From: Candidatus Undinarchaeota archaeon
GTDB lineage: Archaea > Undinarchaeota > Undinarchaeia > Undinarchaeales > JALTGF01
Direction: 5' to 3'
DNA length: 62,719 nt
Assembly (NCBI GenBank): GCA_964574035.1
Contig: CAZNLD010000005.1
Span: forward strand, 1 to 62,719
Under the pieces are notes generated by a model. The model did no database searches. It saw only the letters and a program-made list of their open reading frames with translations, and was not told the origin of the DNA. Within the stretch, counting starts at the first letter, position 1, and every line of letters starts with the position of its first letter. Made by a program: the position numbers and the translations under genes. Shown here one piece after another: positions 23,594-62,706 of the stretch.

Positions 23594-23625
23594 TATGAGT
23601 TCATACGAGAGAGAGTTATATAAAA

Positions 23626-27272: not shown

Positions 27273-27318
27273 AACAAATAAGTCAACTAATTAGAATATA
27301 AACTTTTTGAAGGGAAAA

Positions 27319-28044: not shown

Positions 28045-28126
28045 ATCTATTAGAATGTTGAAGAAAGATAATAAATGTTTGTAACAGTTGAAAAGCTAAA
28101 ATACTACCTAAACTAATAATTTTGCA

Positions 28127-33762: not shown

Positions 33763-34358
33763 AATAAAATCATGAAAAAGTTCAAAATTTTATAACCGAA
33801 CAAAGTTATGATAAAATAATTTATGATGAATTCAAGAGTATGGTTTATTGCAAGTTTTGGGAGAGGAACAGGAGCAGTTTTGAAAGCAACAAGAGTGTCG
33901 CCAATAAGCCATACAACTATTGTAAATAAAGCTGCGAAAACAAATTCTGGCTGAGTTATGTTTAAACCATAAAGGGAAAAGAAAAATCTTGCAGTTAATG
34001 CAGTTCCCGTCAATACAATTGAATGGACGAACGCCCCACTTCCTTCATCCGGTCTTATTTTGACTACGATAAGAAGGGCAACATAAAGCAAGGGTAAAAC
34101 AAAGAACAAATTAAAAACATAAGCATAAATGAACGTAAATAAATAAAAAACTTCAAGACCTATTTTCCATGAATCCGGGAGCCTCATTAAGACAAAAAAC
34201 CCCAGTGATAAAATCCATACTGTCAAAATTTGAAAATATTTACTGATGTAAAAAAACCCAACCAAAGTCACTAGTAATAAAACAACACCAGCTGCAACCA
34301 GTAAAAATAAGTTGTTCTTTGATTTTATGTATTTTGAAAAGATTTGTTTTAAATTCAT
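33759..34358 (-). CDS. Multi-pass membrane protein, paralogue A
   Basis: WKIGLEVFYLFTFIYAYVF...VKIRPDEGSGAFVHSIVLTGTALTAR. 4-nt overlaps on both sides. Confidence 0.65.
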   Translation of the reverse strand: MNLKQIFSKYIKSKNNLFLLVAAGVVLLLVTLVGFFYISKYFQILTVWILSLGFFVLMRLPDSWKIGLEVFYLFTFIYAYVFNLFFVLPLLYVALLIVVKIRPDEGSGAFVHSIVLTGTALTARFFFSLYGLNITQPEFVFAALFTIVVWLIGDTLVAFKTAPVPLPKLAINHTLEFIINYFIITLFGYKILNFFMILL

Positions 34359-34807
34359 CCTTCCTGCACTAATCGCTCAAGCTCAGAATGTTCCTTTTCT
34401 AAATTGTCAACTTTTTGATTGATTAAAGACAAATATTGTACAACCCTATCCGATTCTGTTTTTTGTAAATCTTCTTTTGATTGAATTTGATCAAGTTTAG
34501 TTTCAATAATTTCAAGTCTTTCACCGAGGTTTCTTAATGACTGGGATAAGTCTTCTTTCGGTTCCATATTTTTTCTTTCTTGAACTGGTTTCTCAAATGA
34601 ATCTTCTTTTTCTTTCTTGAGCGCTTCAGGTTCTTTTAATTGTTTTTCTTCTACTGGCCGCTTCGTTTTTTCTGAAGATTCCTCTTTCGGGATCGGGCTT
34701 GGCCCGGATAACTCTTCTTCAAATTCCTCATCCAAACCAGAAAAAGGGTCTTCTTCCGATTCTGAACCTCTTTTTAAAACTTTCCTTGCTATGTCTTTTA
34801 TTCCCAT
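34355..34807 (-). CDS. Acidic coiled-coil protein
   Basis: 150 aa, E/K/S-rich disordered N-terminal half and heptad-like C-terminal half (LEIIETKLDQIQSKEDL...VDNLEKEHSELERL). Confidence 0.55.
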   Translation of the reverse strand: MGIKDIARKVLKRGSESEEDPFSGLDEEFEEELSGPSPIPKEESSEKTKRPVEEKQLKEPEALKKEKEDSFEKPVQERKNMEPKEDLSQSLRNLGERLEIIETKLDQIQSKEDLQKTESDRVVQYLSLINQKVDNLEKEHSELERLVQEG

Positions 34808-39137: not shown

Positions 39138-40331
39138 ATGGCACAAAAGAAATTAGATGATCTATTTGACAACTTCCTAAACAAACAATCCCTTTTTAAG
39201 AACAAAAGGACACTACAGGACGCTTACACTCCTGAAACCGTCCCTCATAGAGAGGAACAAATTCAACAGCTCGCTTCTATTCTCGTTTCAGCTTTAAGGG
39301 GTGAAAAACCCTCAAATGTTTTTATTTATGGTAAAACCGGAACCGGTAAAACCCTAGTTTCAAAATATGTAGCTCAGGAGCTTGAAAACCGGTCAAAACG
39401 AGAGAACAGAAAGCTGAAAGCAAGCTACTTAAATTGCAAAATGGAGAAGGTAAATACTTCCTATCGGCTTCTGGCTCATTTCATAAATGAACTTGGAGAA
39501 ACCGTGCCCGCAACCGGGCTGCCTACGGACCAAGTTTATAAAAAATTCTTAAAAACATTCGATTCAGAAAGCGGAGTTCATATTTTAATTCTTGACGAAA
39601 TAGAGTCTTTAACAGATTCAAATATTCTCTATGATTTGACCAGAATTAATACCGAACTTAAAAATGCAACAATATCCATTGTAGGAATTACTAACGATTT
39701 GTCCTTTACAGATGATTTAGATTCAAGAATTAAATCAAGTTTATCTGAGGAAGAACTAGTTTTTCCACCTTATAACGCATTACAACTCCAAGATATCCTC
39801 GCGCAAAGAGCAAACACTGCTCTTGAAAACGGCTGTCTTGAACCCGGAACAATTGAAAAATGCGCTGCTTTGGCAGCGTTAGAGCACGGAGACGCCAGGA
39901 GGGCTCTTGATTTATTAAGAGTTGCTTGCGAGCTTACCGAAAGAGCAAGCGAAGATTCAGTTTCTATAAAACACGTTGAAATGGCCCAGAAAAAACTTGA
40001 TATTGACAGAATAGTTGAAGTTGTAAAAACACTACCAAAACAATCTCAAATTGTCCTAAACAGCATCATTTACCTAAAAGATTTAAATAAAGAAGAAGTT
40101 GCAACCGGTGACGTCTTTGAAGTCTACAAGAACTTCTGCAAACAATTAAACAGTTCACCCCTAACCCAGAGAAGAGTATCGGATTTAATTTCTGAATTAG
40201 ACATGCTAGGTTTAATTAATGCAACTATAATTTCAAAGGGAAGGTACGGCAGGACAAGAAAAATAAAACTTGATATGTCTGAAAAAGCACTGGAAGACAG
40301 CAAAGAAATTCTCAAACAAGAGTTATTATGA
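39138..40331 (+). CDS. cdc6: Orc1/Cdc6 replication initiator
   Basis: PHREEQI, Walker A GKTGTGKT, Walker B ILILDEIE, GDARRALDLLR sensor, C-terminal wHTH. Confidence 0.95.
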   Translation: MAQKKLDDLFDNFLNKQSLFKNKRTLQDAYTPETVPHREEQIQQLASILVSALRGEKPSNVFIYGKTGTGKTLVSKYVAQELENRSKRENRKLKASYLNCKMEKVNTSYRLLAHFINELGETVPATGLPTDQVYKKFLKTFDSESGVHILILDEIESLTDSNILYDLTRINTELKNATISIVGITNDLSFTDDLDSRIKSSLSEEELVFPPYNALQLQDILAQRANTALENGCLEPGTIEKCAALAALEHGDARRALDLLRVACELTERASEDSVSIKHVEMAQKKLDIDRIVEVVKTLPKQSQIVLNSIIYLKDLNKEEVATGDVFEVYKNFCKQLNSSPLTQRRVSDLISELDMLGLINATIISKGRYGRTRKIKLDMSEKALEDSKEILKQELL

Positions 40332-41752
40332 CTGATAAATTAGCTCCAAAAATAATGAATTTGTTTCTGGAGAATAACATTCAGATTTCTAGAGACGCCT
40401 TAGATATAATAATCAAAAACAACAGCCCCCTATCGTATTCAGAAAAATTAATCAAAACTTCAAAAAAGGAGGGAAAACTTTTCATAAATACGTCTCAGTT
40501 AAGAAAGGGACTGATAAAACCAAAAATTGAAGTTCTTAGAAGTTTTAATCAGACCTATAAAATTTCAGATGTTCAGGACATGTCTGCTTATTTTCAGGCA
40601 AGGCTGAATTACTACAAAAAAGGCCTGCAAAAAAGACTGCAGAGCGTTGCTTCTATTAACAACATTAAAAGAGCCGGAAGAGAAGAAATGAGTATAATTG
40701 CAATAGTTTCTGATAAAAGAAGAACTAAAAGTGAAAATGTAATGTTCCGTCTGGAAGATTTTTCCGGAGAAATAAGAGCAATTGCAACAAAAGAAAAGCT
40801 AATAAAAGAGGCTGAAAAAATAGTGAATGATGATGTTCTCGGTTTTACAGGAAACATGAGCAACGGCATCTTTTTTATTAATGAATTTACATGGCCGGAC
40901 ATGCCTATACACCACAACACAAAAAACAGGGGAGAAGATGTAATAGCAGCGTTTCTTTCAGATATCCATCTTGGAAGCAGAGAGTTCGAAACAGAAAAAT
41001 TTCAGAAAATGATTGACTGGATAAATGGAGATTTAGACACTCATGCAGAAATCCATCCTCACCTTTCAGAAAAACTCAAATATATTTTTATAGCAGGCGA
41101 CCTAGTAGATGGTGTTGGTGTATATCCCAATCAAGAACAAGATTTAGTAATCAAAGATATTTACAAACAATACAAAGAAGCAGCAAATCTGCTTTCAGAA
41201 ATTCCTGAGGAGATTAAAATAGTAATTTCTCCTGGGAACCACGATTATGTAAGACTTGCACAGCCTCAGCCGCCAATTTCAAAAGAAGTCGCTCCTGATT
41301 TATATGAAATGCCTAACGTTGAAATGATAAGCAATCCTGGATTAGTCAGGGCAGGCAACGGATCAAACGCCACCAATGTTTTAATTTATCACGGAACAAG
41401 CATTGATAAATTGGTCATGTCCGACCCAAATTTAAAAGACGGCTATAAAAAACCGGGAAAAGTTATGACTGCCCTAATAAAAAGAAGACACTTATGTCCG
41501 CTTTTTGAGGGAGATATACTGCCCCAGCCGAACAACGGCGACCCTTTGGTAATACCTGAAAACATTGATGTACTTCATATGGGCCACGTACACTCAAATG
41601 ATGCTCTTGAATACAGGGGAATAACATTGGTTAACAGCGGAACCTGGCAGTCAAAAACAAGCTTCCAGGAATTTCTTGGTCACGAGCCAACACCGGCAAG
41701 ACTTCCTCTCTTAAATTTAAAAACCAAACAACTTACTTTAACACAATTCTAA
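40328..41752 (+). CDS. DNA polymerase D small subunit (DP1, exonuclease)
   Basis: OB region then calcineurin-like phosphoesterase motifs (LSDIHLGS, AGDLVDG, PGNHD, GHVH). ATGA overlap with cdc6. Confidence 0.9.
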   Translation: MTDKLAPKIMNLFLENNIQISRDALDIIIKNNSPLSYSEKLIKTSKKEGKLFINTSQLRKGLIKPKIEVLRSFNQTYKISDVQDMSAYFQARLNYYKKGLQKRLQSVASINNIKRAGREEMSIIAIVSDKRRTKSENVMFRLEDFSGEIRAIATKEKLIKEAEKIVNDDVLGFTGNMSNGIFFINEFTWPDMPIHHNTKNRGEDVIAAFLSDIHLGSREFETEKFQKMIDWINGDLDTHAEIHPHLSEKLKYIFIAGDLVDGVGVYPNQEQDLVIKDIYKQYKEAANLLSEIPEEIKIVISPGNHDYVRLAQPQPPISKEVAPDLYEMPNVEMISNPGLVRAGNGSNATNVLIYHGTSIDKLVMSDPNLKDGYKKPGKVMTALIKRRHLCPLFEGDILPQPNNGDPLVIPENIDVLHMGHVHSNDALEYRGITLVNSGTWQSKTSFQEFLGHEPTPARLPLLNLKTKQLTLTQF

Positions 41753-44700
41753 TGAATCAGGAAGAATATCTAAATCACTTAGAAGATGGAGTAAAGAGGG
41801 AATATAGTATTGCTTCGAAAGCGAGGAAAAAAGGAGTTGACCCCAAAGACGAGCCTGAAATATATGTTGCAAAAGACCTTGCAGATAAGGTAGAAGGTCT
41901 TATTGAATTTGAGGGCATCGGAGACATTGTAAGAAAATTACAGGAGAAAGTCAACACCGAGGAAGAAGTAGCATTTAAACTCGTTGATGAAGTAATAAAA
42001 AGAGTTGATGACCGAGAAAAAGCAGCAGATTTGGCAGTCAGAGCAGCTCTTGCTTTTCTAACTCAGGGTTCAGTGGCGGCTCCTTTAGAAGGCATTGCAA
42101 AAATTAAAATTCTTAAAAATCCAGACAATTCCGAATATTTAGCGATCTATTACGCAGGACCCATACGAGCCGCAGGAGGGACCGCAGAAGCAGTTTCAGT
42201 AGTAGTTGCAGATTACGTACATAAGGCGCTCGGCTTAGACAGATACAAACCAACTCAAAAAGAAATAGGCCGATATGTTGAAGAAGTTAGGTGGTACCAC
42301 AGAAGAAAAAGGCTTCAGTATAAACCTAAAGAAGAAGAAGTAAGGACAATTATTAAAAATGTACCGGTGTGTGTCGACGGCGATCCCACAGAACCATATG
42401 AGGTTTCAACTTACCGGAATTTAGGCAGAGTAAAAACCAATAGAGTAAGAGGAGGTATGTGTCTGGTTCTTGCAGAAGGTCTTGCTCAGAAGGCGCCCAA
42501 ATTACTGAAGCGATTAAAACCAATACAGGAAAAATACGGCTTAGATTGGTCCTGGCTGGAGGGACTTTTGGTTAAAAGAAAAACAGACGAAAGCGAAAAA
42601 GAAAAAGAAAAAATATCTCATATTGCTGAAAAAGAACTTCCTGATGAATTCAAAAAAGAGTATGAGGGTCACTTATTTACAATAGACGAAATCACTGAAA
42701 TTGTTCAGGAAACGAGTGCAATTGATGTTCTTGAAGACTATACCGATGAAGAACCAGAAAAGAAAGGAAGCGACAAATTCCTGAATGAAATACCTGCAGG
42801 AAGGCCGGTTTTTTCCTACCCCGGCAGAAAAGGCGGTTTCAATCTAAGGTATGGAAGAACAAGAGCAAGCGGATATGCAGCCATTTGTTTAAACCCTGCA
42901 ACAATGTGCATTTTAGACCGATTTATTGCAACAGGAACTCAGATAAGACTAGAACTGCCCGGAAAAGCAGGAATTGTGACTCCCTGCGATACAATAAATG
43001 GCCCAACTATTCTTCTAAAAGATGGAGAGGTTAAACAAGTAGACTCTTTTGAAGAAGCCAAAAAATACAAAGGAATGATTGAACGAATTATCAATTTAGG
43101 AGATCTTTTAATCTCCGCAGGCGACTTCTTTGAAAATAATCACAAATTACTGCCATCTTCTTATTGTGAAGAATGGTGGGCGAAGGAAGTCAAAAAAGCC
43201 CAGAAAGAAGAAAAGGCATCAGCAAAAGAAATTTTAAACTCCTCAAAATATCTAAACCCGCCTTTTGAAAAGCCTAGTTTTAAAAAAGCAAAAGAATTTT
43301 CAGAAAAACTTTCAATTCCGATGCATCCTGCTTACACATTTCAATGGAATTATGTTCAAAATTCTGACCTTTTGGAGCTGGCAAAAGCCCTTAAGGATTC
43401 TAAAATCGAAAATGAAAAAATCATACTTGAAAATATTTCCTCTGTTAAAAAAATCATAGAGAAATTATGCATTTTCCATAAGTTAGAAGATTCAAAAATC
43501 ATAATTTCTGAACATAAAGAACCTCTTTTATCATCTATAGGAAGGCCAAAAGAGTGGGATAAAATAATCAAAATCATTGAAGGCAACAAGAGACATAAAA
43601 CATTAGATACGGTCAACAAGCTTTCTGAAATAACAATAAAAGGCAAAACACCAACTAGGATTGGCGCCAGAATGGGCAGGCCTGAAAAGGCAAAGCCGAG
43701 AAAAATGACTCCTGCACCCCATGTCCTTTTCCCGACAGGCGTTAGGCAAGGCAGAGTCAGAAATTTAATGAAACTTTACAAAGAAGAAAAGAAAATCAAA
43801 CCATATCTGGCAAAATTTAAATGTAATAATTGTTCAAGCTTTCAGTTCTATCCTCAATGTCCTGACTGCGGTAGTAAAACAAATCTCTTGAACTTTTGTC
43901 CAAGGTGCAGAATTTTTTCAAAAGAAGAAAAATGCAAAAAATGCAATTCAAGTACTGTAACTTATGAGCAGCAGGAAATTGATATAAAAGAATTATTGGA
44001 CTCTGCATCAAAAAAATTGGGAACAAAGCTGCCTGAAAACATAAAAGGGATTCTGGGTATGTCTACCAAAAACAAAATACCTGAGGCAATTGAAAAGGGA
44101 ATTTTAAGAGCTGAACAGGACTTGTATGTTTTCAAAGACGGGACAATAAGGCATGATAGCACAGATGCGCCTTTAACACACTTCAGGCCGAATGAAATAA
44201 ACACCTCAATTGAAAAACTGAAAGAATTGGGCTATGATAAAGATATTTATGGAAAAAATCTAGAAAAAGAAAATCAAATCGTGGAGCTAAAACCACAGGA
44301 CATTGTAATAAGCGATTACGGCGAAAGTTCTGCTACTTCCTATTTATTGAAAGCCAGCAAATTTGTAGACAAACTTTTAGAAAAGTATTATGGATTAGAA
44401 AAGTATTATAACTGCAAAACAAAGGAAGACCTCGCCGGAACATTTGTGGTAGCTCTTGCACCTCATACTTCAACAGGAATTGTCGGCAGAATTATAGGAA
44501 GTACTGCTGCCAAAGTTACCTTCGCTCACCCCTGCTTCCACGATGCAAAGAGGAGGGACTGCGACGGAGACGAAGATGCAGTAATGCTGCTTTTAGATGC
44601 ACTTTTAAATTTTTCAAAGAGTTTTCTGCCTCAAAAAAGAGGAGGGAAAATGGATGCTCCATTAGTTATAACTTCGAAATTAGGTGCATTAGAAATTGAC

Positions 44701-45297
44701 GACGAAGTTTACGATATTGATATTGTTGGAGAATATCCTCTTTCATTTTATGAAACAGTTGAAAAAACAGCAGACCCTAATGATGTAGATTTGCTTACTT
44801 TCGGAGACACCATTTACGGCGAAGATCCCTTTGCAGGGTGGAATTACACGCACGAAACTACTGACATTAATAATGCTCCCTTGTCAAACATTTACACTGA
44901 AGGGAAAATGTCTAAAAAACTTAAAAAACAAATGCGTCTTGCTGAAATAATTGATGCAGTCGATGAAAAAAATGTTGCTGAAAAAATCATTAATAGTCAT
45001 TTCCTTCCAGATATAAAAGGAAATCTGAGGACTTTTTCAAAACAAAAAGTAAGGTGTACTAATTGCAATTCAAAATACAGGAGGCCTCCACTTTCGGGAA
45101 TATGTACGAATTGCGGAGGAAACCTAACCTTTACTGTTCACAGAGGTTCAATTGAAAAGTATCTGCAGATATCAAAAGATTTAATCAAGAAGTATAACGT
45201 ATCCCCTTACATTAGCCAGCAGATAGATTTATACGAAGCAAACATCAAATCAATATTTGGAGAAAAAGCTCAGAAAGAGCTCCAGTCTTTTACATAA
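41752..45297 (+). CDS. DNA polymerase D large subunit (DP2)
   Basis: 1181 aa. Zinc modules CNNCSS..CPDCGS and CTNCNSKYRR...CTNCGG, catalytic region HPCFHDAKRRDCDGDEDA. TAATG overlap with DP1. Confidence 0.95.
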   Translation: MNQEEYLNHLEDGVKREYSIASKARKKGVDPKDEPEIYVAKDLADKVEGLIEFEGIGDIVRKLQEKVNTEEEVAFKLVDEVIKRVDDREKAADLAVRAALAFLTQGSVAAPLEGIAKIKILKNPDNSEYLAIYYAGPIRAAGGTAEAVSVVVADYVHKALGLDRYKPTQKEIGRYVEEVRWYHRRKRLQYKPKEEEVRTIIKNVPVCVDGDPTEPYEVSTYRNLGRVKTNRVRGGMCLVLAEGLAQKAPKLLKRLKPIQEKYGLDWSWLEGLLVKRKTDESEKEKEKISHIAEKELPDEFKKEYEGHLFTIDEITEIVQETSAIDVLEDYTDEEPEKKGSDKFLNEIPAGRPVFSYPGRKGGFNLRYGRTRASGYAAICLNPATMCILDRFIATGTQIRLELPGKAGIVTPCDTINGPTILLKDGEVKQVDSFEEAKKYKGMIERIINLGDLLISAGDFFENNHKLLPSSYCEEWWAKEVKKAQKEEKASAKEILNSSKYLNPPFEKPSFKKAKEFSEKLSIPMHPAYTFQWNYVQNSDLLELAKALKDSKIENEKIILENISSVKKIIEKLCIFHKLEDSKIIISEHKEPLLSSIGRPKEWDKIIKIIEGNKRHKTLDTVNKLSEITIKGKTPTRIGARMGRPEKAKPRKMTPAPHVLFPTGVRQGRVRNLMKLYKEEKKIKPYLAKFKCNNCSSFQFYPQCPDCGSKTNLLNFCPRCRIFSKEEKCKKCNSSTVTYEQQEIDIKELLDSASKKLGTKLPENIKGILGMSTKNKIPEAIEKGILRAEQDLYVFKDGTIRHDSTDAPLTHFRPNEINTSIEKLKELGYDKDIYGKNLEKENQIVELKPQDIVISDYGESSATSYLLKASKFVDKLLEKYYGLEKYYNCKTKEDLAGTFVVALAPHTSTGIVGRIIGSTAAKVTFAHPCFHDAKRRDCDGDEDAVMLLLDALLNFSKSFLPQKRGGKMDAPLVITSKLGALEIDDEVYDIDIVGEYPLSFYETVEKTADPNDVDLLTFGDTIYGEDPFAGWNYTHETTDINNAPLSNIYTEGKMSKKLKKQMRLAEIIDAVDEKNVAEKIINSHFLPDIKGNLRTFSKQKVRCTNCNSKYRRPPLSGICTNCGGNLTFTVHRGSIEKYLQISKDLIKKYNVSPYISQQIDLYEANIKSIFGEKAQKELQSFT

Positions 45298-53944: not shown

Positions 53945-54367
53945 ATGGCAGAGTTAATCTATCTAGATACTAATATATACCTTGATTACTGGGAAAACCG
54001 CTCTGATAAAATGCGGCCGCTTGGAGATTATGCATTCAATGTTCTAAAGAGAGCGCTTAAATGCGAATTCATTATTATAACTTCAAATTTGGTTTTCAAA
54101 GAATTGGATGGAAAAATAAGTAATCTAGCCATAGAAAACATTTTCAATAAACTGGATGCCACCAATAAGCTGGAAAGAATCTCACAACACGAGACAGATA
54201 TTGTAAAAGCCCGTGAAATTGCAAAAACCAGAAATACTCATCCTGCAGATGTTTTACATGCAATCCTTGCCAAGCGAGCTGGTGCAAAATACCTGATAAC
54301 CAGAAACCAAGCAGATTTTGAAGAATTAGATTTTATCATCGAAGCCGTATTTCCTGAAGATATCTGA
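53945..54367 (+). CDS. PIN-domain protein (VapC-like)
   Basis: IYLDTNIY (first acidic residue), KELD, ADVLHA, LITRNQADF. Confidence 0.7.
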   Translation: MAELIYLDTNIYLDYWENRSDKMRPLGDYAFNVLKRALKCEFIIITSNLVFKELDGKISNLAIENIFNKLDATNKLERISQHETDIVKAREIAKTRNTHPADVLHAILAKRAGAKYLITRNQADFEELDFIIEAVFPEDI

Positions 54368-54619
54368 CGGTTTTTCGTTTGCCAGTTCTTCAAAAATCCT
54401 GTCTCTTTCTTTTTTTGTCGGCCTCTTTATATTTTTAACACTTCCAAACTGTTTTTTGAGTTCAATCAGAGCTTCGTGTTTCCTTTTTTCCTGAATTGCA
54501 TTTCTAATGGCTTCCAGACTGAATTCCTGCGGACTTCTGTATCCATCTTCTTTAACATAGTGTTTAATTTCCTTATACAGCTTGTCCGGAACCCTCATAT
54601 GAATTAATTTATTTGTCAT
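54326..54619 (-). CDS. Ribbon-helix-helix (CopG-like) protein
   Basis: LIHMRVPDKLYKEIKHYVKEDGYRSPQEFSLEAIRNAI is an RHH pattern. Its 3' end overlaps the PIN gene 3' end by 42 nt. Confidence 0.6.
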   Translation of the reverse strand: MTNKLIHMRVPDKLYKEIKHYVKEDGYRSPQEFSLEAIRNAIQEKRKHEALIELKKQFGSVKNIKRPTKKERDRIFEELANEKPSDIFRKYGFDDKI

Positions 54620-55652: not shown

Positions 55653-55767
55653 TTTTCTTTATGTATTATTTTTTTGTTAGTTTAGTTTTTATTCTTATCT
55701 CTTTTACAGTCTTTTTAATAACCTAAACCCTTAAATATATATCTGACTATTACTTTTTAGAGTAGTA

Positions 55768-56007
55768 ATGAAAAAAGAAATAACAAATGAATTGCTTGCA
55801 GTGTTATTTGTAATCGCAATTGTTGTTTCACTTGCCGGAACTTATCTTGTTTTAAGTAACGTAGTTTCAGCACCTATTGAAATAACAATCCCGCAAAGCT
55901 CGGACAGCGGTGTTATAAATCTATACGTCATGCCGGAGCCTGCGGATGAAGATGCTCAAGTTACACTAAATGTAGTTAACAATTCGTCTGAGGAGGGGAC
56001 CCCATGA
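55768..56007 (+). CDS. Small secreted/anchored protein, first gene of the surface locus
   Basis: N-terminal hydrophobic helix LLAVLFVIAIVVSLAGTYLVL then a short beta-rich, acidic segment. ATGA overlap with the next gene. Confidence 0.6.
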   Translation: MKKEITNELLAVLFVIAIVVSLAGTYLVLSNVVSAPIEITIPQSSDSGVINLYVMPEPADEDAQVTLNVVNNSSEEGTP

Positions 56008-56576
56008 ATATAGACAACAATGTATTAGCTGGCTTGGTTATCGTCGCTATAGTTGTCGGAATTGCGGGAATTTACTCTGCATCATCCATACAAAGCTCGC
56101 CCTCGAGAGGCACAGGCCTTGTAACAGGAACTGCAAATGTAACCATTCCTTCAAGAGTACAAATTTCTCTGCCTGTAGATGGAATTGATTTCGGCAATGT
56201 GAACATATCTGATTCAGATGACACCGAAGATCTAAGCCCTGCACCGTTTGAAGTTCAGAACGACGGCAGTGTGGATGTAAACATAACAGTCTACGCTACA
56301 GACTTGTTCAGTGGATCAGGCGCATCAAATCCGTCAAGTTACTATCAGTTTAAGTCTGCAGAAAATGAAGCAGGATCTGTTGAGGACAGTGGCAGCGACT
56401 TAGTAACAACATGGACGAATATGCCAAACAGCACTTCACCTGCAACGTTCGCAACGAACATGAACTTCCCAAACAATAACGACAATCTGTACGGACATAT
56501 AAGTATAACTGTCCCAGATGACGAACCGGCAGGATCAAAGAGCTCAACGGTAACGTTTACTGCAAGCCAAGCATAA
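56004..56576 (+). CDS. Putative surface-fibre subunit, paralogue A1
   Basis: TM/signal helix, then GLVTGTANV, IDFGNV, PAPFEVQNDGSVDVNITV, TTWTNMP, VPDDEPAGSKSSTVTFTASQA. Paralogue of 58832-59380. GAGGAGGGG Shine-Dalgarno sequence. Confidence 0.7.
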   Translation: MNIDNNVLAGLVIVAIVVGIAGIYSASSIQSSPSRGTGLVTGTANVTIPSRVQISLPVDGIDFGNVNISDSDDTEDLSPAPFEVQNDGSVDVNITVYATDLFSGSGASNPSSYYQFKSAENEAGSVEDSGSDLVTTWTNMPNSTSPATFATNMNFPNNNDNLYGHISITVPDDEPAGSKSSTVTFTASQA

Positions 56577-56599
56577 ATAGTAAAATTCCAACTAAAGTA

Positions 56600-56630
56600 A
56601 AGGGGGAAAGCACCCCCTTCTTTTAATTTA
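56600..56630 (+). terminator. GC hairpin plus T-tract after paralogue A1
   Basis: AAGGGGG-AAAGCA-CCCCCTT (56600-56619) followed by CTTTTAATTT. Confidence 0.45.
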
Positions 56631-56698
56631 TATTATCTTGGTTTATCTGCCACGCATAGCAAAAACATATAAATCCAAGTAGTGTTTAATTTCTTAAT

Positions 56699-57916
56699 AT
56701 GACCCACAAATTATTGATTATGTCTGTAATATTTTTAATTATTTTAGCCGCCCCTGTTTTTTCTATAGGGATAACTCCAAGCAGAATAAAAACAGATTTC
56801 GAGGCAAATGAAAAAGCTTCTTTTGAATTTACGGTTTCAAATACAAAAAATACTCAAATTAACATTCAAATATATAAAAAAGGCGATCTGAAAGAATATA
56901 TCTCTTTATCGGAAACGGAGATTACATTAGGACCGGGAAAATCAAAAAAGCTGTCTTTTACAATAGATTATCCCTCCGAAATAACTCCCGGAAAACACGA
57001 TATAAGAATTGGAGCACTTGAGATAGCGGGAGGAGGAGCTGAAGATGGAACAGCTGTCGGAGCAGTTGGGGCGGTTGAACTTCAGTTTTGGGTTTATGCA
57101 AAGTATGAAGGCAAGTATTTAGATGTTTCATTAGGCGTTCCAGATGTTGCTGCTGGTGAAAAAATAGGTTTTACAGTATCTTTAGCAAGCAAAGGCACAG
57201 AAGATATTGAAGAGGCAAACGCAGAAATTAAAGTATATGACACTGCAGGCGAACATATAAAGACATTAAACACGGGTTCAACCTCTGTATCAGCAGACTC
57301 TACTGAAGAACTTTATGCTGAATGGGATCCGGGAAAACTGCCTGCTGGAGCTTATCAGGCGGAGGCACTTGTTTCTTATGACGGGGAAACTGCTCAAGCG
57401 GAAACTACTTTTAATATAGGAGAACTTTTCATAAAGATTGAGAATATATTTGTAGATAATATTCCTGCAGGAAGCATAGGAAAAGCAAAAATTGAAATTA
57501 ATAGTTTCTGGAACGAAAAAATTGAATCGGCATACGCAACTATTGACTTGATGTCAAATGGAAAAAGTATAAAATCATTCAAAAGCACTGTCTTTGATAT
57601 CCCTGCACAGGGATCTAAAACTGCGGAAGTTTTTATTGATTCTGAAGGTTTGGCTGAAAGGCAATATACTCTCTCTGTAAAAGTATACTATTCAAATAAA
57701 GTTGCTGAAAAAACCGGAACTCTTACAGTAGTTTCTCCGTCAGCACTTCCGAATATAACTCTTCTTGCAAGTGTCGTTATTTTAATTTTAATAATAATTA
57801 TAATAATCATTATTTATCTCTGGAATAAAAGAAAATCATCTGAAGTTAGAAGACCGAAAAAAATTCAACCAAAACAGGAGTATGCTTTCTATGAAGAACA
57901 GGAAGATGAGCTCTGA
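56699..57916 (+). CDS. Surface protein with three Ig/CARDB-like beta-sandwich modules and C-terminal TM anchor
   Basis: Signal helix. Module pattern F.F.V.N......I.I / L.PG..K...F.I..P....PG.H repeated 3 times. Anchor LLASVVILILIIIIIIIIYLWNKRK. Confidence 0.7.
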   Translation: MTHKLLIMSVIFLIILAAPVFSIGITPSRIKTDFEANEKASFEFTVSNTKNTQINIQIYKKGDLKEYISLSETEITLGPGKSKKLSFTIDYPSEITPGKHDIRIGALEIAGGGAEDGTAVGAVGAVELQFWVYAKYEGKYLDVSLGVPDVAAGEKIGFTVSLASKGTEDIEEANAEIKVYDTAGEHIKTLNTGSTSVSADSTEELYAEWDPGKLPAGAYQAEALVSYDGETAQAETTFNIGELFIKIENIFVDNIPAGSIGKAKIEINSFWNEKIESAYATIDLMSNGKSIKSFKSTVFDIPAQGSKTAEVFIDSEGLAERQYTLSVKVYYSNKVAEKTGTLTVVSPSALPNITLLASVVILILIIIIIIIIYLWNKRKSSEVRRPKKIQPKQEYAFYEEQEDEL

Positions 57917-58343
57917 AAAATTTAAATTTAATGGACGAATTGCTGCCCTTTTGGTTATTGCGGTTGTTTGCCTTATTCTTTTTTTAACAGTATTTGGTTT
58001 TTCTTTATTGAAATCTTTTCAAGTAAAACAGGCACAGGAAATCGATATGCAGTTAACCGTTGGAAATTACACCGGCTTTAATGTGAATACAAGTGCATTA
58101 TTTTTCGGTACTGTAGTTCCCGGGGGAACTTCAAAGAGAAGCATTAACATCCACAATCCATTAGAAACGCCTTTAAAAGTAATGTTAAGCATTGAAGGAG
58201 AATTAAGTCAATGGGCATTAGTTTCCAACAACTCTTTTGAGCTCAAACCTAACGAAAGCAGGGAAATTTTAATTGAGATAAATGTCCCGAGCTCAGCAGA
58301 GTTCGGAGAGTACAATAGTACATTTATAATAACTTTTAAATAG
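57882..58343 (+). CDS. N-terminally anchored single beta-sandwich protein, paralogue B1
   Basis: TM helix then FFGTVVPGGTSKRSINIHNP...LSQW...FELKPNESREILIEINVP...GEYNSTFIITFK. Confidence 0.65.
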   Translation: MLSMKNRKMSSEKFKFNGRIAALLVIAVVCLILFLTVFGFSLLKSFQVKQAQEIDMQLTVGNYTGFNVNTSALFFGTVVPGGTSKRSINIHNPLETPLKVMLSIEGELSQWALVSNNSFELKPNESREILIEINVPSSAEFGEYNSTFIITFK

Positions 58344-58344
58344 A

Positions 58345-58797
58345 GTGCAAATGACTAGTTTAAAGATAAATATGCAAAAAAGAAAGAGAAGCACAACATT
58401 ATATCACTTATTGTTTGTATCTTTATTACTTGTTTTGTGCATCGGTTTTGGCATTGGAATGCTGCACCAGCCAGCTCAAAGCCATCAGGAGCGTTTTGAT
58501 ATGGTTATAGTGGTTGGAGATAATCCGGAGCCAAATCTCGTTACTGGAGCCATGTCTTTGGGAAATATTCACTCTGGGGAAAGTTCAATTCAGTGGGTTG
58601 AAGTGGTTAATCCTTATAAAAAACAAAAAGAAGTGAACATACACATTAATGGTATTCTCAAGCAGTGGACGGATATCTCAGACAATGACTTTATTTTGAA
58701 ACCAAATGAAAGGAAAGAAGTGTTTTTCAATATAACCGCTCCAAAAGGAACTGAAACAGGCAGCTACATTAGCTTGGTTATAATAACTTTTAAATAA
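58345..58797 (+). CDS. N-terminally anchored single beta-sandwich protein, paralogue B2
   Basis: TM helix then SLGNIHSGESSIQWVEVVNP...LKQW...FILKPNERKEVFFNITAP...GSYISLVIITFK. GTG start at 58345 (ATG at 58351). Confidence 0.65.
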   Translation: MQMTSLKINMQKRKRSTTLYHLLFVSLLLVLCIGFGIGMLHQPAQSHQERFDMVIVVGDNPEPNLVTGAMSLGNIHSGESSIQWVEVVNPYKKQKEVNIHINGILKQWTDISDNDFILKPNERKEVFFNITAPKGTETGSYISLVIITFK

Positions 58798-58831
58798 TAA
58801 TCAAATCACTAAAGAGTAGGAAGTAATAAAA

Positions 58832-59380
58832 ATGGTAAGAGTAGATATAGTCAGTATAGTATTAGTAGTTTCAGTAATTTTATTATCGGGGATTTTTGTG
58901 CATAATATAACTGGTTTTGTTACGGGGACTGCTCAAGTTGAAGTACAAGGTGAGGCAGTCGTTTCCCTGCCAACCTCTTCTATTAATTTCGGACAAGTGG
59001 AAACAGGGGCAACAAACGATACTACCAACGATAGTCCACCTCCTTTTGTAATTCAAAATGACGGCAATGTTATATGTAATGTTACTATTGAAAGGGACCC
59101 ATCTACAACTCCTTTATTTAATGGAACAGGGGGAGGGGACAATACCGAATCCTTCCAGTATAAAGCAGATAACACTTCAGAAGCCGATTCTTTTAACTGG
59201 GGCGCATCATCAACAACCTGGACAAATGTTCCAGGCACTACCTCTCAGGAGTTTTTAAAGGAGCTTAATCATCAACGCCCACGTGACTCAGCAGAGGTGG
59301 ACTTGCGGATAAATGTCCCAGGAGACGAGCCCCCTGGCATTAAAACGGAATCTCTTATTTTTACCGCATATGAAGCTTAA
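58832..59380 (+). CDS. Putative surface-fibre subunit, paralogue A2
   Basis: GFVTGTAQV, INFGQV, PPPFVIQNDGNVICNVTI, TTWTNVP, VPGDEPPGIKTESLIFTAYEA. Confidence 0.7.
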   Translation: MVRVDIVSIVLVVSVILLSGIFVHNITGFVTGTAQVEVQGEAVVSLPTSSINFGQVETGATNDTTNDSPPPFVIQNDGNVICNVTIERDPSTTPLFNGTGGGDNTESFQYKADNTSEADSFNWGASSTTWTNVPGTTSQEFLKELNHQRPRDSAEVDLRINVPGDEPPGIKTESLIFTAYEA

Positions 59381-59385
59381 AAAAA

Positions 59386-60237
59386 ATGAATATTAATAAA
59401 AAGATAATAATCTCACTAATTACTTTTCTAATCCTTCTTAGTTTCCTTCAGTTTTCAATTACTGCCTACATTACTGCTACGGGCGAAATTGATATTAAAA
59501 TATTCAGTGCAATCAAAGGAAAGGAGGAAATAGAAATACCATTTCAGGAAGAGAATACCTGCGAATTCTATAATTTTACTAACCCAAATCTAACAGTTAA
59601 TTCTGTTAAGATATGTTCTTTAAAAAACATTTCAAATGCAGTACTAGAGCAGAAAAAATTAAACTGCTCTGCGCTCCCAGATCCTCCGAACATACAATAT
59701 GACTGCGTCCAATTTACAATTACTAATCTTCCGACCATTTCAATTGAATACATTACACTCTTTTTTAATGTTGAAAACAGCTGGATAGATTCAAATAATA
59801 TAGATACCAGCAAGATTTTAATGTACAAATTCTATTCAGGGTCCTGGAATCCTTTAACTACAGAAAAAACAGAAAGTGGCAATGAGTTTATGTCTTATGA
59901 ATCAGAAACGGATTCTTTTTCCTACTTTGCAATAACGGGAGAAAAGAAAGCTGAAAAGGAGGAAGAAGCACCTTCTGTAGGGGGCGGAGGAGGAACAGTT
60001 TCAGCACCAGCGCCGTCTCCGGCGCCGTCCCAGCCGAAAGAAGAGGAGCCGGAAAATGTTACAGTATCCGAGCCGGAAATCCCTAAACCATTGCTTGACA
60101 TTGGAGCTAAAATAGTTTCTGAAGCAAGAAGGTTCCACCCAGCGATTTATCTCTCTATCTTATCCTCTTTATTACTTATTTTAGCTGCCCTTCTAATCTT
60201 TTTCTATAAATTAAAGAAATTTTATATTAGTACTTAA
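59386..60237 (+). CDS. Surface protein with PGF-pre-PGF-like domain, Pro/Gly/Ala linker and C-terminal TM
   Basis: FFNVENSWIDSNNIDTSKILMYKFYSGSWNPLTTEKT...ETDSFSYFAITG resembles the PGF-pre-PGF domain. Linker GGGGGTVSAPAPSPAPSQP. Anchor AIYLSILSSLLLILAALLIFFYKLKK. Confidence 0.65.
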   Translation: MNINKKIIISLITFLILLSFLQFSITAYITATGEIDIKIFSAIKGKEEIEIPFQEENTCEFYNFTNPNLTVNSVKICSLKNISNAVLEQKKLNCSALPDPPNIQYDCVQFTITNLPTISIEYITLFFNVENSWIDSNNIDTSKILMYKFYSGSWNPLTTEKTESGNEFMSYESETDSFSYFAITGEKKAEKEEEAPSVGGGGGTVSAPAPSPAPSQPKEEEPENVTVSEPEIPKPLLDIGAKIVSEARRFHPAIYLSILSSLLLILAALLIFFYKLKKFYIST

Positions 60238-60276
60238 ATTATAAATTTATTTAAACCATCATAATTAACGTTAATT

Positions 60277-61158
60277 ATGAATCTGAAAGAAGTTTCAATT
60301 ATTTTCATTATTTTTTTCCTGCTATTGACGTTGCCAGCAAGTTCACAGTCAGATTTCTCTCTTAAGGCAGGCGTTCCAGAAGGATTAAATCAAGTAGCTC
60401 CAGGCGATTCACTTTATTTTTCAATTCAATTAATTAAATTTGAAGATAATCAAACACAGGATATTACTTTGCTGTATGATGTAAGGGACTGCGAAAACAA
60501 CACCTTACTGGAAAATAAAGAAACAATTGCAATTGAAACGACTGCTTCACTTGTAAGGTCTGTGAAAATTCCTCCCGATTTCAAACCGGGGACTTATTAT
60601 TTAGTTGTTGAAGCAGTTTATTCAGGACAGGAATTTCCCGCCCTTGCCATAGTAAGGTTTGAAGTTCTTCCGACTTTTTTCGGCATGTTTTTATATGAAC
60701 TTATCCCGCTTTTTTTAATTGCAGTTAGTACATTAATTATTTTACTGGTACTATTTCTCATTTACATACGCTCTGTAAAGAAAACATTCGTAAAATTCGA
60801 TTATTCACATATCCCAAAAGAAAAAAGACCCTATTTTGAAATTTTAAGTAAAGTAATATCAGCCCTGCGCTCACATGTAGGAAATAAAGCCATAAAATGT
60901 GTAAATGAAATAGAGGGTGTAAAAGTTTCAGATGAAGGCAAGGTATTAAAGATTGAAAAGGACCCTGCAGAGGTCCTTGCCATCTTAATTTCAAAATATC
61001 AGGAAATTGCAAAAGTTTCAAATGCAGTGGATAAACTCCTGCAGTCTGAGAAGAATAGAAGAATAAATAAACCAGTAGAAGACACGTTATCTCATGCAAG
61101 GGACTATATTAAATTAGTTAAAAAACTTAAAAGAGGCGATAAAAATGAAGAGCAGTAA
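60277..61158 (+). CDS. Bitopic protein: extracellular beta-sandwich, one TM, about 130-aa cytoplasmic domain
   Basis: Signal helix, CARDB-like VAPGDSLYFSIQL...PPDFKPGTYYLVVEAVY, TM LIPLFLIAVSTLIILLVLFLIYI, then a soluble tail. Its stop overlaps the receiver gene by 14 nt. Confidence 0.65.
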   Translation: MNLKEVSIIFIIFFLLLTLPASSQSDFSLKAGVPEGLNQVAPGDSLYFSIQLIKFEDNQTQDITLLYDVRDCENNTLLENKETIAIETTASLVRSVKIPPDFKPGTYYLVVEAVYSGQEFPALAIVRFEVLPTFFGMFLYELIPLFLIAVSTLIILLVLFLIYIRSVKKTFVKFDYSHIPKEKRPYFEILSKVISALRSHVGNKAIKCVNEIEGVKVSDEGKVLKIEKDPAEVLAILISKYQEIAKVSNAVDKLLQSEKNRRINKPVEDTLSHARDYIKLVKKLKRGDKNEEQ

Positions 61159-61546
61159 AATCAAAAAAAGGATCTTAGTTGTAGATAACGACAAAACAAC
61201 AGTGGGAACAATGTGCAGGCAGATATCCACTGGAAAATATACTCCAGTTGGGGTGCATGGCGCCCAGGAAGCGTGGGAAATAATTAATCAGAATAACATT
61301 GATGCAATCCTAATAGATATAATGATGCCGGATATTGATGGAATAACCTTTGCAGAGCAACTTTTGAAAAAAAACACGACAAAAAACACTCCGGTTATTC
61401 TCTTCAGTGCGCTCAGTATAAATTCAAAGGGTTTTGAGCATTCAGAAAGAATAAACCAACTTTCAAATGTGAAAGCAACACTTGAAAAGCCGTTTACAGC
61501 AGATAAATTAATCAAAACAATAGACAAATCAATAAACCAAAAATAA
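61145..61546 (+). CDS. Stand-alone response-regulator receiver domain (CheY-like)
   Basis: ILVVDND, LIDIMMPDIDG (phospho-Asp context), ILFSALS, EKPF. Confidence 0.85.
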   Translation: MKSSKIKKRILVVDNDKTTVGTMCRQISTGKYTPVGVHGAQEAWEIINQNNIDAILIDIMMPDIDGITFAEQLLKKNTTKNTPVILFSALSINSKGFEHSERINQLSNVKATLEKPFTADKLIKTIDKSINQK

Positions 61547-61554
61547 GTTTGTAA

Positions 61555-62706
61555 ATGAAGAAGAAAGAAAAACCGGTTATCTCGTACGATAAAAAACAAA
61601 TCGAAAGCTTCTTTGATAGCATCCCTGCTTTAATTTTCATTAAAGATAGGGAAGGCAGATTTATTCTAGTAAATAAAAAGATAGCTGATGCTCATAATTT
61701 ATCAAAAGAGGAGCTTATTGGGGCGAACACTTTTGATTTATATCCAAAAGAACACGCTCAAAAATATTTAGAAGATGATTTAGAAGTTATTAAATCAGGT
61801 AAACCAAAGGTAAATATATTCGAGCCATGGGTAACTAAAGAAGGTAAAAAATGGGTTATTACAAAGAAAACACCATATAAAGATAAGCACGGAAAAATAA
61901 TAGGTGTTACCGGAGTTTCTATAGATGTTACCGAAGAGAAAAAATTACAAGAAAGAATTATAAAACAACAAAACATTTTCACTAAAATAATAGTTCATGA
62001 ACTCAAATCGCCATTAATGAATATTGTAGGACTTTCAGATCTGATATTAAATGAAACATTCGGCAAAATACCTCAAAAGGCAAAGCAAGAATTAAAAACA
62101 ATTCTCAGTGAATCATTCAAAATCAAAGAGCGCATAGATAAGCTGTCATTCTCAGAACATCTGGAAGAAGCGCCAGATTCCTTAAATATTGTGCGGCTGA
62201 ATACTTCAGTTTACCTAAAAAAATTAAGAAAAGAAGTTCATGGTTTGCTTGCAACGAAATCAATTTCGCTGCGGATAAATAATAAAGCCGGTAATACGCC
62301 TTTTTATGCTGACCCTGAAAAACTTAGCCAGGTTTTCATCAATTTAATTGATAATTCAATAAAACACAGCAAACCCAAAACAACTATAACTATTTCAGCC
62401 AGAAAGTCTGGAAAGTATATGGTTTTTGAAGTACGCGACCAGGGCACCGGAATACCTGACGAGGAAATATCTAGCATATTTAAGAAATTTACCCAAGAAT
62501 CCAGTTACTTGCAAAGAAAACAGGAAGGATTAGGTCTTGGTCTTTACATTTGCAAGGAAATAATCAAACATATGCACGGCACAATAAAATGCAAAAGCAA
62601 AGTAGGGAAAGGGACAAAAATTACATTTACTCTCCCATTAAAAAAATGGGGGGGGGCGAAAGGCACAACAATGATTTTTACTTTGCCGTTAAAAAAGAAT
62701 AAGTAA
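61555..62706 (+). CDS. PAS-domain sensor histidine kinase (no TM segment)
   Basis: PAS (FIKDREGRFILVN...ITKKTPYKDKHGKIIGV), H-box VHELKSPL, N-box NLIDNSIKHS, G1 DQGTGIP, G2 GLGLGL. Duplicated C-terminal FTLPLKK segment. Confidence 0.9.
   Translation: MKKKEKPVISYDKKQIESFFDSIPALIFIKDREGRFILVNKKIADAHNLSKEELIGANTFDLYPKEHAQKYLEDDLEVIKSGKPKVNIFEPWVTKEGKKWVITKKTPYKDKHGKIIGVTGVSIDVTEEKKLQERIIKQQNIFTKIIVHELKSPLMNIVGLSDLILNETFGKIPQKAKQELKTILSESFKIKERIDKLSFSEHLEEAPDSLNIVRLNTSVYLKKLRKEVHGLLATKSISLRINNKAGNTPFYADPEKLSQVFINLIDNSIKHSKPKTTITISARKSGKYMVFEVRDQGTGIPDEEISSIFKKFTQESSYLQRKQEGLGLGLYICKEIIKHMHGTIKCKSKVGKGTKITFTLPLKKWGGAKGTTMIFTLPLKKNK

Follow-up and report, generated by a model that had tools for sequence, protein, structure and literature searches.

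A widely conserved gene cassette of DPANN archaea that encodes a new family of beta-sandwich domains and a candidate surface fibre or adhesion system

DPANN archaea are ultra-small, mostly host-dependent organisms that must attach to other cells, and few of them have been cultured; to our knowledge, the molecules that they use for attachment are largely unknown. Here, we describe a cassette of surface-protein genes at positions 55768–61158 of a 62,719-nucleotide (nt) stretch of DNA from a Candidatus Undinarchaeota archaeon (assembly GCA_964574035.1, contig CAZNLD010000005.1), the whole of which is called the window below. Eight co-directional open reading frames (ORFs) on the + strand, designated G1, A1, G3, B1, B2, A2, G7 and G8 in their order along the DNA, encode a secreted or membrane-anchored beta-sandwich surface system, and four parts of this system, g1, A, G3 and B, recur in the same order across the DPANN archaea. 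The A proteins constitute a new domain family of about 150 amino acids (aa) that is absent from Pfam and NCBIfam and that also forms the extreme C-terminus of very large proteins of related archaea. The explanation that we tentatively favour, while stopping short of calling it probable, is that the cassette builds an ATP-independent, strand-complemented fibre or adhesin stalk; its role is likely attachment to host cells or surfaces. An earlier, sequence-only reading of this DNA had proposed a surface fibre or adhesion system without type IV pilus machinery: the surface system and the lack of pilus genes in the locus were borne out, whereas the fibre itself is an inference, argued for below. 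Beyond that reading, the most informative features are a strand motif shared by G1, A1, A2 and G7 and the adhesin-like proteins of relatives that end in the A domain. The cassette has apparently not been described before, given that no paper describing it, or linking DPANN archaea to donor-strand fibres, was found in the literature.

Related loci were collected by scanning one genome per species with a 13-sequence A alignment as the query, and the ORFs in these loci were grouped by BLAST clustering under a 50% coverage rule. Iterated profiles for G1, B and G8 drifted (150–190 matches through hydrophobic segments); those counts were discarded, and labels resting on them were not used as evidence. 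The 64 loci (numbered with the prefix L) come from Undin-, Woese-, Pace-, Nano-, Aenigmat- and Micrarchaeota and from Norongarragalinales, along with a few seemingly mislabelled bins. The A family is represented in 61 sources (60 loci plus the window), G3-like proteins in 45 and the B family in 39, and every other family in seven at most. About 40 of the 64 loci share the order small g1 (where present), A in one to four copies, G3, B and, often, a protein with N- and C-terminal transmembrane segments; where the B family is present (39 loci), it always lies directly after G3. Such a recurrence, in about 40 independent loci of DPANN archaea, goes far beyond what chance would produce. Wide conservation applies to the four-part core g1-A-G3-B and not to the eight-gene set, whose conservation as a unit did not hold up: G8, the two-component genes that follow it (response regulator and histidine kinase) and G7 as such are lineage-specific and common only to the closest relatives (L009 and L015).

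A distant Nanoarchaeota metagenome-assembled genome (MAG; L001/L009) carries 1:1 counterparts of the window genes in the same order, with identities of 42% for G1, 53% for A1, 39% for G3, 36% for B, 56% for A2, 35% for a fusion of a G7-like N-terminus with G8, 46% for the response regulator and 44% for the histidine kinase; in this lineage, the conserved block runs past 61158, to 62706. The closest relatives of the cassette proteins are found in an Undinarchaeales MAG (A1, 76% identity; G3, 56–62%). In L015, there is a single B gene, and thus the B1/B2 duplication is not seen in the nearest relative.

A1 (190 aa; 56004–56576, + strand), with an N-terminal helix, a conserved TG segment and a beta-sandwich ending in KSSTVTFTASQA, and A2 (182 aa; 58832–59380, +), a second subtype of the same family, are paralogues with 40% identity (E 8e-30), one of the two pairs that had been recognised from the sequence. 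They are ancient subtypes, because both have 1:1 counterparts in the distant Nanoarchaeota MAG; A2 has orthologues of its own (56% identity to its positional counterpart in L001, against 39% to A1) and carries the motif DPSxTPLFxGTGGGDNT. A search for A1 homologues returned 40 proteins, and all of those with a source name were "hypothetical protein" entries of DPANN MAGs. When A1, A2 and 78 diverse A members were compared with Pfam and NCBIfam, no family match emerged beyond noise and a sub-threshold match to Arch_flagellin in two of the 78, and searches of the PDB sequences with A1 alone and with the A-family profile returned noise only. The exhaustive profile search with A reached 2,883 representative clusters (50% identity) at E ≤ 1e-3, of which 1,889 were retained at E ≤ 1e-10.

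About a third of the best 150 A hits are proteins of 270–3,466 aa in which the domain ends a few residues from the C-terminus, and some 30 large proteins in the fetched loci likewise carry A at their extreme C-terminus. These giants look like adhesins, because their N-terminal parts contain FN3-like "YxWxVxAxD" repeats, Laminin_G_3, Big_7 and glycine-rich domains. Several have an N-terminal transmembrane anchor, and the window itself encodes no giant A-domain protein. Tandem A-A fusions were also sought, and the apparent two-stretch matches proved to be adhesin repeats plus a single A domain. The largest Woesearchaeota giants (L027, 473–10453; L056, 1849–9228; L065, 3109–8505; L067, 1435–9252) begin with a basic motif, "KKYxYKNGKxxGPYYY...", followed in L027 by a transmembrane segment among residues 1–80, and they appear to be anchored N-terminally, with the A domain at the far C-terminal end.

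Two further arrangements around A genes were observed. Directly upstream of g1-A-G3-B, many Woese-, Pace- and Nanoarchaeota loci (L027, L031, L032, L038, L046–L048 and others) contain a sub-cassette of a giant with an A domain, a protein of about 165 aa (f3) with an N-terminal transmembrane segment and a conserved "PGxYYWK" motif, and a G3 paralogue. In three loci from Micrarchaeota and Norongarragalinales (L036, L040 and L043), the small A gene is not beside G3 or B and is preceded by a trio of genes for N-terminally membrane-anchored proteins without Pfam matches (f29-f30-f29), which suggests an alternative partner set for small A in these lineages.

The AlphaFold model of A1 (predicted local distance difference test, pLDDT, 88) comprises a helix at residues 5–27 and an eight-stranded sandwich at 54–189, connected by residues 28–53 without regular secondary structure; confidence is lowest at 21–40. 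Among the top 50 Foldseek matches of this model in the PDB, most are subunits of donor-strand fibres, namely TLP-1a, FimA/I/G/F, PapE/A, Csu, AbpA and the Pyrodictium cannulae, all with marginal scores (E 1e-3 to 5e-2, TM-scores 0.3–0.5): TLP-1a (9ikj) at E 1.1e-3 and TMq 0.42, AbpA (7ueg) at E 4.5e-3 and TMq 0.33, the cannula 9h8b at E 5e-3 and TMq 0.38, and Fim, Pap and Csu subunits at E 2e-3 to 5e-2 and TM-scores of 0.3–0.5. The analogy with donor-strand fibres drawn in the sequence-only reading thus finds some support, the best structural matches being such subunits at marginal E-values, and the likeness of the modelled A1 to such subunits is a lead, not proof.

In the 78 small A proteins, the helix is followed by [IVAL]-T-G-x-x-T-G-T-A-x-V-x-V, with both glycines (G38 and G42 of A1) invariant in 77 of the 78. 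With its [IVAL]-x-G pattern, which agrees with the -3/-1 rule for signal peptidase I, [IVAL]-T-G is a putative signal-peptidase site; after cleavage there, the protein would begin with a strand in which hydrophobic residues alternate. A motif of the form "[ST]G-x-V-x-V-x-V" occurs once each in four proteins of the window, SGVINLYV in G1 (residue 47), TGTANVTI in A1, TGTAQVEV in A2 (residue 31) and TGEIDIKI in G7, in each case after the N-terminal helix; a regular-expression search of the window proteins did not find it in G3, B1, B2, G8 or the two-component proteins. Besides this motif, A and g1 proteins share a conserved hydrophobic N-terminal segment, "[VI]S[ND]N.[LI][LIA]..L[LV]V..[IV][IV]S..G", usually starting at residue 2–4 without a basic n-region, and a few members have basic leaders of 10–53 aa; the segment matches neither class III signals nor canonical Sec signals.

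G1 (79 aa; 55768–56007, +), proposed here as a membrane anchor or plug, consists of an N-terminal transmembrane helix, a linker and short strand motifs, the second of which is AQVTLNVV, and its orthologue in L001, 42% identical, also lies upstream of A. Comparable g1-like ORFs of 63–100 aa precede small A in 29 cases and encode a transmembrane helix, one or two copies of "[ST]G-x-V-x-L-x-V" and little else. The regular expression matches 18 of the 29, compared with three of 227 other ORFs with an N-terminal transmembrane segment, although it was written after the sequences had been seen. A position-specific scoring matrix (PSSM) derived from small A proteins only separates g1 from other small ORFs of this kind (p = 2.7e-7). 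Proteins encoded after B in more than 15 loci, despite having no overall relation to one another, share a layout of N-terminal transmembrane segment, "TG", "GTVxVTV"-type strand, variable or Gly-rich region and C-terminal transmembrane segment, and they too score higher with the small-A matrix (median -0.1 vs -8.8 for other ORFs with an N-terminal transmembrane segment, p = 9e-8). G7 (283 aa; 59386–60237, +) is the window's protein of this kind and a proposed membrane anchor or terminator. It contains an N-terminal transmembrane segment, the strand motif, a PGF-pre-PGF domain (TIGR04213, residues 58–185; 85 bits against a cut-off of 28, E 5.5e-24), a Pro/Gly/Ser linker and a C-terminal transmembrane segment, features that, apart from the strand motif, had been read from the sequence; no PGF-CTERM model matched it at E ≤ 1, and its C-terminus, ...FHPAIYLSIL...KLKK, is without PGF. 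The main argument for strand complementation in trans comes from these proteins, because a protein that is only a transmembrane helix plus a strand can hardly act except by adding that strand to the sheet of a partner.

The other two components of the core are Ig-like. G3 (405 aa; 56699–57916, +), a proposed chaperone or assembly and anchoring platform, was modelled on an 8-sequence alignment (pLDDT 83) as a signal peptide, three beta-sandwich domains and a transmembrane helix, followed in the sequence by an acidic/basic tail; together with a CARDB match above the Pfam cut-off (27.5 vs 22.7 bits), this bears out the three Ig/CARDB-like modules and C-terminal anchor previously ascribed to it. 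A conserved loop at residues 112–122 is disordered in the model of the isolated protein. Foldseek matches of the model include ASH/HYDIN repeats, generic tandem-Ig proteins, RbmA, the Enterococcus WxL-interacting proteins (WxLIP) 9i1y and 9i25 (E 1e-10) and the S-layer protein 7ptp. In Pfam searches with 60 G3 relatives, WxLIP_HBD (DUF3324) was matched by 26 (best E 3.6e-9), WxLIP_PGBD (DUF916) by two and CARDB by 13, and G3 of the window gave weak matches to WxLIP_PGBD and WxLIP_HBD, below the cut-off and in the right order; with the G3 profile, the PDB sequences yielded CARDB-like singletons only, and WxLIP was not retrieved at E ≤ 1. The DUF3324 matches identify G3 as distantly related to the WxL-interacting protein of Firmicutes.

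B1 (153 aa; 57882–58343, +) and B2 (150 aa, GTG start; 58345–58797, +) are the second paralogous pair (35% identity, E 4e-23), with one Ig-like domain in B1. The hydrophobic segment of both is preceded by a basic leader of 13–20 residues, which suggests an uncleaved signal anchor. In profile comparisons with hhalign, homology of the B family to domain 1 of G3 is evident (probability 97.7%, E 1.4e-12), and the family aligns more weakly with the N-terminal half of A (90%, E 1.5e-6). Matches of B1 to Cep192_D4 (E 4e-6), ASH and choice_anchor_D, that is, to PapD-like or ASH-type domains, are weak and below cut-off.

The eight ORFs lie at the coordinates originally proposed, with spacings, from G1 to G8, of -4, +122, -35, +1, +34, +5 and +39 nt; the 35-nt overlap had been given correctly, whereas the largest gap is 122 and not 121 nt. 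An independent gene caller, applied to a second assembly of this sequence (Logan SRR7048220), also predicts the first five genes, placing the starts of B1 and B2 slightly later. As the sequence-only reading had it, every product (8/8) begins with a hydrophobic segment, and C-terminal transmembrane segments are present in G3 and G7. N-glycosylation sequons occur at 1.8–3.3 per 100 aa in G1 (2.5), A1, A2, B1 and G7 vs 0.56 in 19 cytoplasmic proteins of the window, a 3–6-fold higher density that fits an extracellular location of these five proteins.

The locus probably comprises two transcription units, split after A1. A TATA-box-like element, TTAAATATATAT (55731–55742, +), about 26–37 nt upstream of the G1 start, is the putative promoter of G1-A1, and a second such element precedes G3. 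Past the A1 stop codon, at a distance of 24 nt, lies a GC hairpin, AAGGGGG-AAAGCA-CCCCCTT, followed by CTTTTAATTT (56600–56629, +; -12.5 kcal/mol, z = -1.8), the strongest + strand terminator-like site in the region. A hairpin and T-tract also follow the A1 orthologue in the distant L001 (10574–10596), conserved in position and not in sequence. A terminator-like hairpin after the A1-type gene of two distant genomes is what would be expected for an abundant major subunit. These signals suggest separate and strong expression of the G1-A1 unit, a common trait of major structural subunits.

Combined, these features lead us to the following scheme for the fibre or stalk. A1 and A2 would be exported and cut after the invariant [IVAL]-T-G, exposing an N-terminal donor strand that would fill a groove in the A domain of the adjoining subunit on the distal side, and thus yield a polymer of A in which A1 would be the major subunit and A2 a minor subunit or adaptor. 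Where they are present, large proteins ending in A would occupy the tip, like FimH or PapG, and G1 and/or G7, which have a transmembrane segment and a strand and no A domain, would occupy the final groove and hold the fibre at the membrane. Membrane-tethered chaperones, or an assembly platform, would be provided by B and by G3, the latter acting through the loop that is disordered on its own. They would take the place of a soluble periplasmic chaperone and an usher, because an archaeon without an outer membrane cannot use these.

By sequence, the A proteins do not appear to be members of the TasA, WxL, chaperone-usher pilin or type IV pilin families. TasA/camelysin (PF12389) is not matched at E ≤ 1 by A1 or A2, nor by any of the 78 members in Pfam searches; NCBIfam adds one noise-level TasA-type match (TIGR04090, E 0.05, 1/78), and the A profile retrieves no TasA, AbpA or CanA from the PDB sequences. 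The TasA/camelysin likeness suggested earlier is therefore not upheld at the sequence level. WxL (PF13731) is matched by neither A1 and A2 nor the 78 members, and the consensus has no conserved W-x-L. PapD_N, PapD_C and Usher match none of the cassette proteins, and neither do DUF1628 and Pilin_N in the Pfam and NCBIfam scans. Compared with known systems by architecture, the cassette is closest to a blend of WxL clusters and donor-strand fibres of the chaperone-usher and tafi kinds.

The published WxL clusters of Lactobacillales and Bacillales encode a small protein that is nothing but a WxL domain, a large one that carries this domain C-terminally and a WxLIP composed of DUF916, DUF3324 and a transmembrane segment, and a WxLIP loop that is disordered alone is predicted to become a strand filling a gap in the WxL sandwich (PMC10599100). 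The architectural analogy is striking and, for G3, partly one of homology: many cassette loci combine a small, module-only A, giants ending in A and a membrane-anchored Ig-like G3 that is detectably related to WxLIP and has a comparable loop. Unlike WxL clusters, the cassette belongs to archaea without peptidoglycan for a module to bind, has an A domain that is not WxL by sequence and a G3 with three Ig domains in which DUF916 is barely detectable (2/60), adds B, g1 and membrane-anchored strand proteins, and often contains 2–4 tandem small A genes. The parallel with WxL/DUF916 clusters made in the sequence-only reading consequently stands for G3, a distant WxLIP relative, and not for A.

This parallel leads to the rival explanation that survives best, a display platform of the WxL type without polymerisation, in which A would be an incomplete sandwich that acts as a docking module and is completed by a strand from G3 (and B, g1 or G7), such that small A and the large adhesins of relatives would be held on the surface as a complex and not as a fibre. 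The cluster composition that mirrors the Firmicutes arrangement (PMC10599100), the WxLIP_HBD matches in 26 of 60 G3 relatives, the weak PGBD and HBD matches of G3 in the window, the Foldseek matches to 9i1y and 9i25 and the loop that is disordered on its own all speak for it, and the sub-cassettes of giant, f3 and G3 paralogue suggest pairwise partners. However, the A domain lacks both a WxL match and a conserved W-x-L, and the G3-WxLIP structural match is no better than those to many tandem-Ig proteins. A single G3 for up to three or four tandem small A genes (L017 and L047) fits polymer subunits better than 1:1 docking, as does a terminator after A1 that implies a large excess of A1 over G3. 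Moreover, small A proteins have no functional domain besides A to display, and several giants are already anchored by an N-terminal transmembrane segment, which would render a second anchor redundant. We regard such a platform as rather unlikely, although it deserves to be kept in mind.

The strand-complemented fibre draws its closest parallels from three groups of fibres. Subunits of chaperone-usher pili (Fim, Pap and Csu) rank high, with marginal scores, in the structural comparison of A1, and these pili resemble the cassette in their N-terminal-strand subunits, in two-part large adhesins that end in a subunit domain, in ATP-independent assembly (proposed for the cassette), in accessory Ig domains of the PapD-like superfamily (compare the weak Cep192_D4 and ASH matches of B) and in a strongly expressed major-subunit gene followed by a terminator. 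In contrast to these pili, the cassette has no usher, no outer membrane, no PapD_N or PapD_C match and no sequence homology to pilins, and its putative chaperones are membrane-anchored proteins of one or three domains.

In TasA-type systems, a dedicated signal peptidase I (SipW/TafD-like) often adjoins the fibre genes, not universally, given that none is found next to CanX. The Sec-exported beta-sandwich fibres of monoderms and archaea include TasA/TapA/SipW, the AbpA/AbpX bundling pili, the CanA cannulae and the Saci_0406 threads, in which an N-terminal donor strand is exposed by signal-peptidase cleavage (PMC9245690, PMC9715654, bioRxiv 10.1101/2024.12.30.630787). Members of this group, AbpA (7ueg), cannulae (9h8b) and TLP-1a (9ikj), recur among the A1 Foldseek matches, whereas the cassette has no profile match to TasA or the solved members and no adjoining signal peptidase, and giant adhesins ending in a subunit domain, or partners such as G3, B and g1, are not reported there. 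Haloarchaeal tafi are composed of a TafC tip with a LamG-like domain, a TafE adaptor, the TafA major subunit and a TafF anchor with a C-terminal transmembrane segment, along with the TafD peptidase (PMC11821415). The design proposed for the cassette is the same, with a tip adhesin (Laminin-G domains occur in some A giants), an adaptor, major Ig-like subunits, an anchored terminator and donor strands; this is a likeness of design, and tafi differ in their Tat signals, their dedicated signal peptidase and their occurrence in Halobacteria, not DPANN.

Several observations weigh against strand complementation in trans. The regular-expression test on g1 was designed post hoc, unlike the PSSM tests, and G7 itself scores only -0.4 with the PSSM, about the median of the post-B group. 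B aligns to A across the putative donor strand, and the strand may therefore be the first strand of the sandwich in cis. Many giants have a similar "NFTIxSxV" strand directly before the A core, and the idea that giants lack a pre-A strand was withdrawn for that reason. The structural matches of A1 are marginal, and PapD-like, Ig and GH123 Ig domains appear among them as well; a free C-terminus is not universal, given that some A2-type members carry extra C-terminal domains. Finally, export and cleavage of the A proteins are not assured, since their N-termini lack a basic n-region.

Type IV pili and archaellins offer another model, in which A1, A2 and G1 would be atypical type IV pilins, G3, B, G7 and G8 would have accessory roles, and genes elsewhere in the genome would supply an assembly machine of the FlaI/FlaJ/PibD type. 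Like such pilins, A proteins combine an N-terminal hydrophobic helix with an Ig-like domain; the hydrophobic segment is conserved in A and g1, some of which have basic leaders of variable length, and tandem paralogues with a tiny, minor pilin-like g1 are typical of archaeal pilin loci. The Arch_flagellin matches of two distant members fall on the beta-sandwich (26 bits vs a cut-off of 29.5), and UpsA and the pilin 6w8u (E 7) are matched at noise level. Nevertheless, as the sequence-only reading had noted, there is no class III cleavage motif: [KR][GAS] was not found, and most A members start "MVSNN..." (consensus MVSNNxLAGL) without a charged leader or G/A at -1. Between helix and domain, some 25 residues rich in Gly, Ser and Thr form a linker with an invariant TGxxTG, for which the model shows no structured contact (28–53, low pLDDT), the A domain also occurs without a helix at the C-terminus of giants with unrelated N-termini, and Arch_flagellin is matched by only two of 78 members. 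Neither is there an assembly machine at hand. When the 40 largest other ORFs of the window were scanned against Pfam, no domain of PilB/FlaI, PilC/FlaJ, prepilin peptidase, signal peptidase, sortase or archaeosortase was detected, the remaining window ORFs of no assigned function contained nothing suggestive of pilus or sorting machinery by eye, and the families conserved across the 64 loci include no ATPase, platform protein or peptidase. A pilin identity of these proteins is thus improbable.

It is about equally hard to believe that the products are co-regulated yet physically independent envelope proteins, Ig-like or glycan-binding and associated with a cell wall or S-layer, with the motif as a common first strand after the signal sequence, because, even though the parts are generic Ig-like sandwiches with weak matches to CARDB, FixG_C, NEW3 and a PACE-CTERM S-layer model and the G3 model matches the S-layer protein 7ptp, the gene order is strictly conserved over phylum-level distances, the motif is enriched specifically in only three protein classes, g1 is nothing but a transmembrane helix and a strand, and the A domain ends hundreds of unrelated large proteins. 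An S-layer gene was also considered and rejected for lack of any S-layer family match above noise, and a prophage or defence island was rejected because there is no such content beside the locus.

Downstream of the core, G8 (293 aa; 60277–61158, +), a possible sensor or coupling protein, has a signal peptide, a strand-rich ectodomain of about 105 aa, a single transmembrane segment at about 135–165, a basic stretch and a helical cytoplasmic tail of about 120 aa, the bitopic topology that had been predicted; it has no Pfam match. The clustered family consists of G8 and members from L009 and L015, and a 365-aa protein in L001 that bears a G7-like N-terminus is 35% identical to it over 270 aa. G8 is followed by genes for a single-domain response regulator (61145–61546, +; overlapping G8 by 14 nt and 46% identical to an L001 gene with PF00072) and a cytoplasmic PAS histidine kinase (61555–62706, +; 44% identical to an L001 gene with PAS/HisKA/HATPase_c). 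The pair also follows the cassette in the Nanoarchaeota MAG, and at least the regulator does so in the Undinarchaeales MAG, where the contig ends. The conserved cytoplasmic tail of G8 might couple surface events to the kinase, and G8, the response regulator and the kinase may regulate the locus in this lineage.

The remainder of the window is chromosomal DNA of a DPANN archaeon, with PolD DP1/DP2, Cdc6, Hef, CDC48, topoisomerase I, a RadA-like protein, SerRS and enzymes of pyrimidine and purine metabolism identified by Pfam scan. The window begins inside the gene for a family B DNA polymerase (11–595; C-terminal 194 aa, PF00136), and the genome hence has PolB besides PolD (40328–45297). The region 21900–28100, with about 10 ORFs on both strands and slightly lower GC (0.33–0.34), may be an integrated element or a lineage-specific island; the five ORFs scanned had no Pfam match, several resemble small winged-helix or zinc-ribbon proteins by eye, and two encode small membrane proteins. 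Two adjoining paralogous polytopic membrane proteins of 197 and 199 aa (33169–34358, -) are likewise without a Pfam match, and an acidic, coiled-coil-like ORF of 150 aa (34355–34807) overlaps the gene for the 199-aa protein by 4 nt. Just upstream of the cassette (53945–54619), two ORFs that converge and overlap, one of 140 aa (+) and one of 97 aa (-), have sequences reminiscent of a PIN-type nuclease and a ribbon-helix-helix protein. Among the related loci, L001 contains a LAGLIDADG endonuclease ORF between two AAA+ ORFs resembling replication factor C (1–2020), an arrangement that points to an intein or a homing endonuclease inserted in that factor.

The cassette is among the most widely conserved sets of surface-protein genes in DPANN archaea (64 loci from major lineages), and its A-domain family, with about 2,900 clusters at 50% identity, is missing from both Pfam and NCBIfam. 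Their common C-terminal A domain indicates how hundreds of giant "hypothetical" surface proteins of DPANN archaea may be mounted on the cell. If strand complementation holds, donor-strand fibres would reach another archaeal superphylum, the cassette would exemplify chaperone-like assembly adapted to a cell without a periplasm, and the WxL/WxLIP clusters of Firmicutes would be linked to the same principle. A broader and more doubtful, still conceivable, extension is that DPANN archaea as a whole use an unrecognised ATP-independent pilus system, a single-membrane counterpart of the chaperone-usher pathway in which tethered G3 and B would polymerise A by donor-strand exchange, g1 would anchor the polymer and giants would sit at its tip, as their main host-attachment organelle; were this true, it would suggest that the WxL clusters of Gram-positive bacteria work in the same way. 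With its defined proteins, the cassette is a candidate for the apparatus by which DPANN archaea attach, and one concrete enough to be tested.

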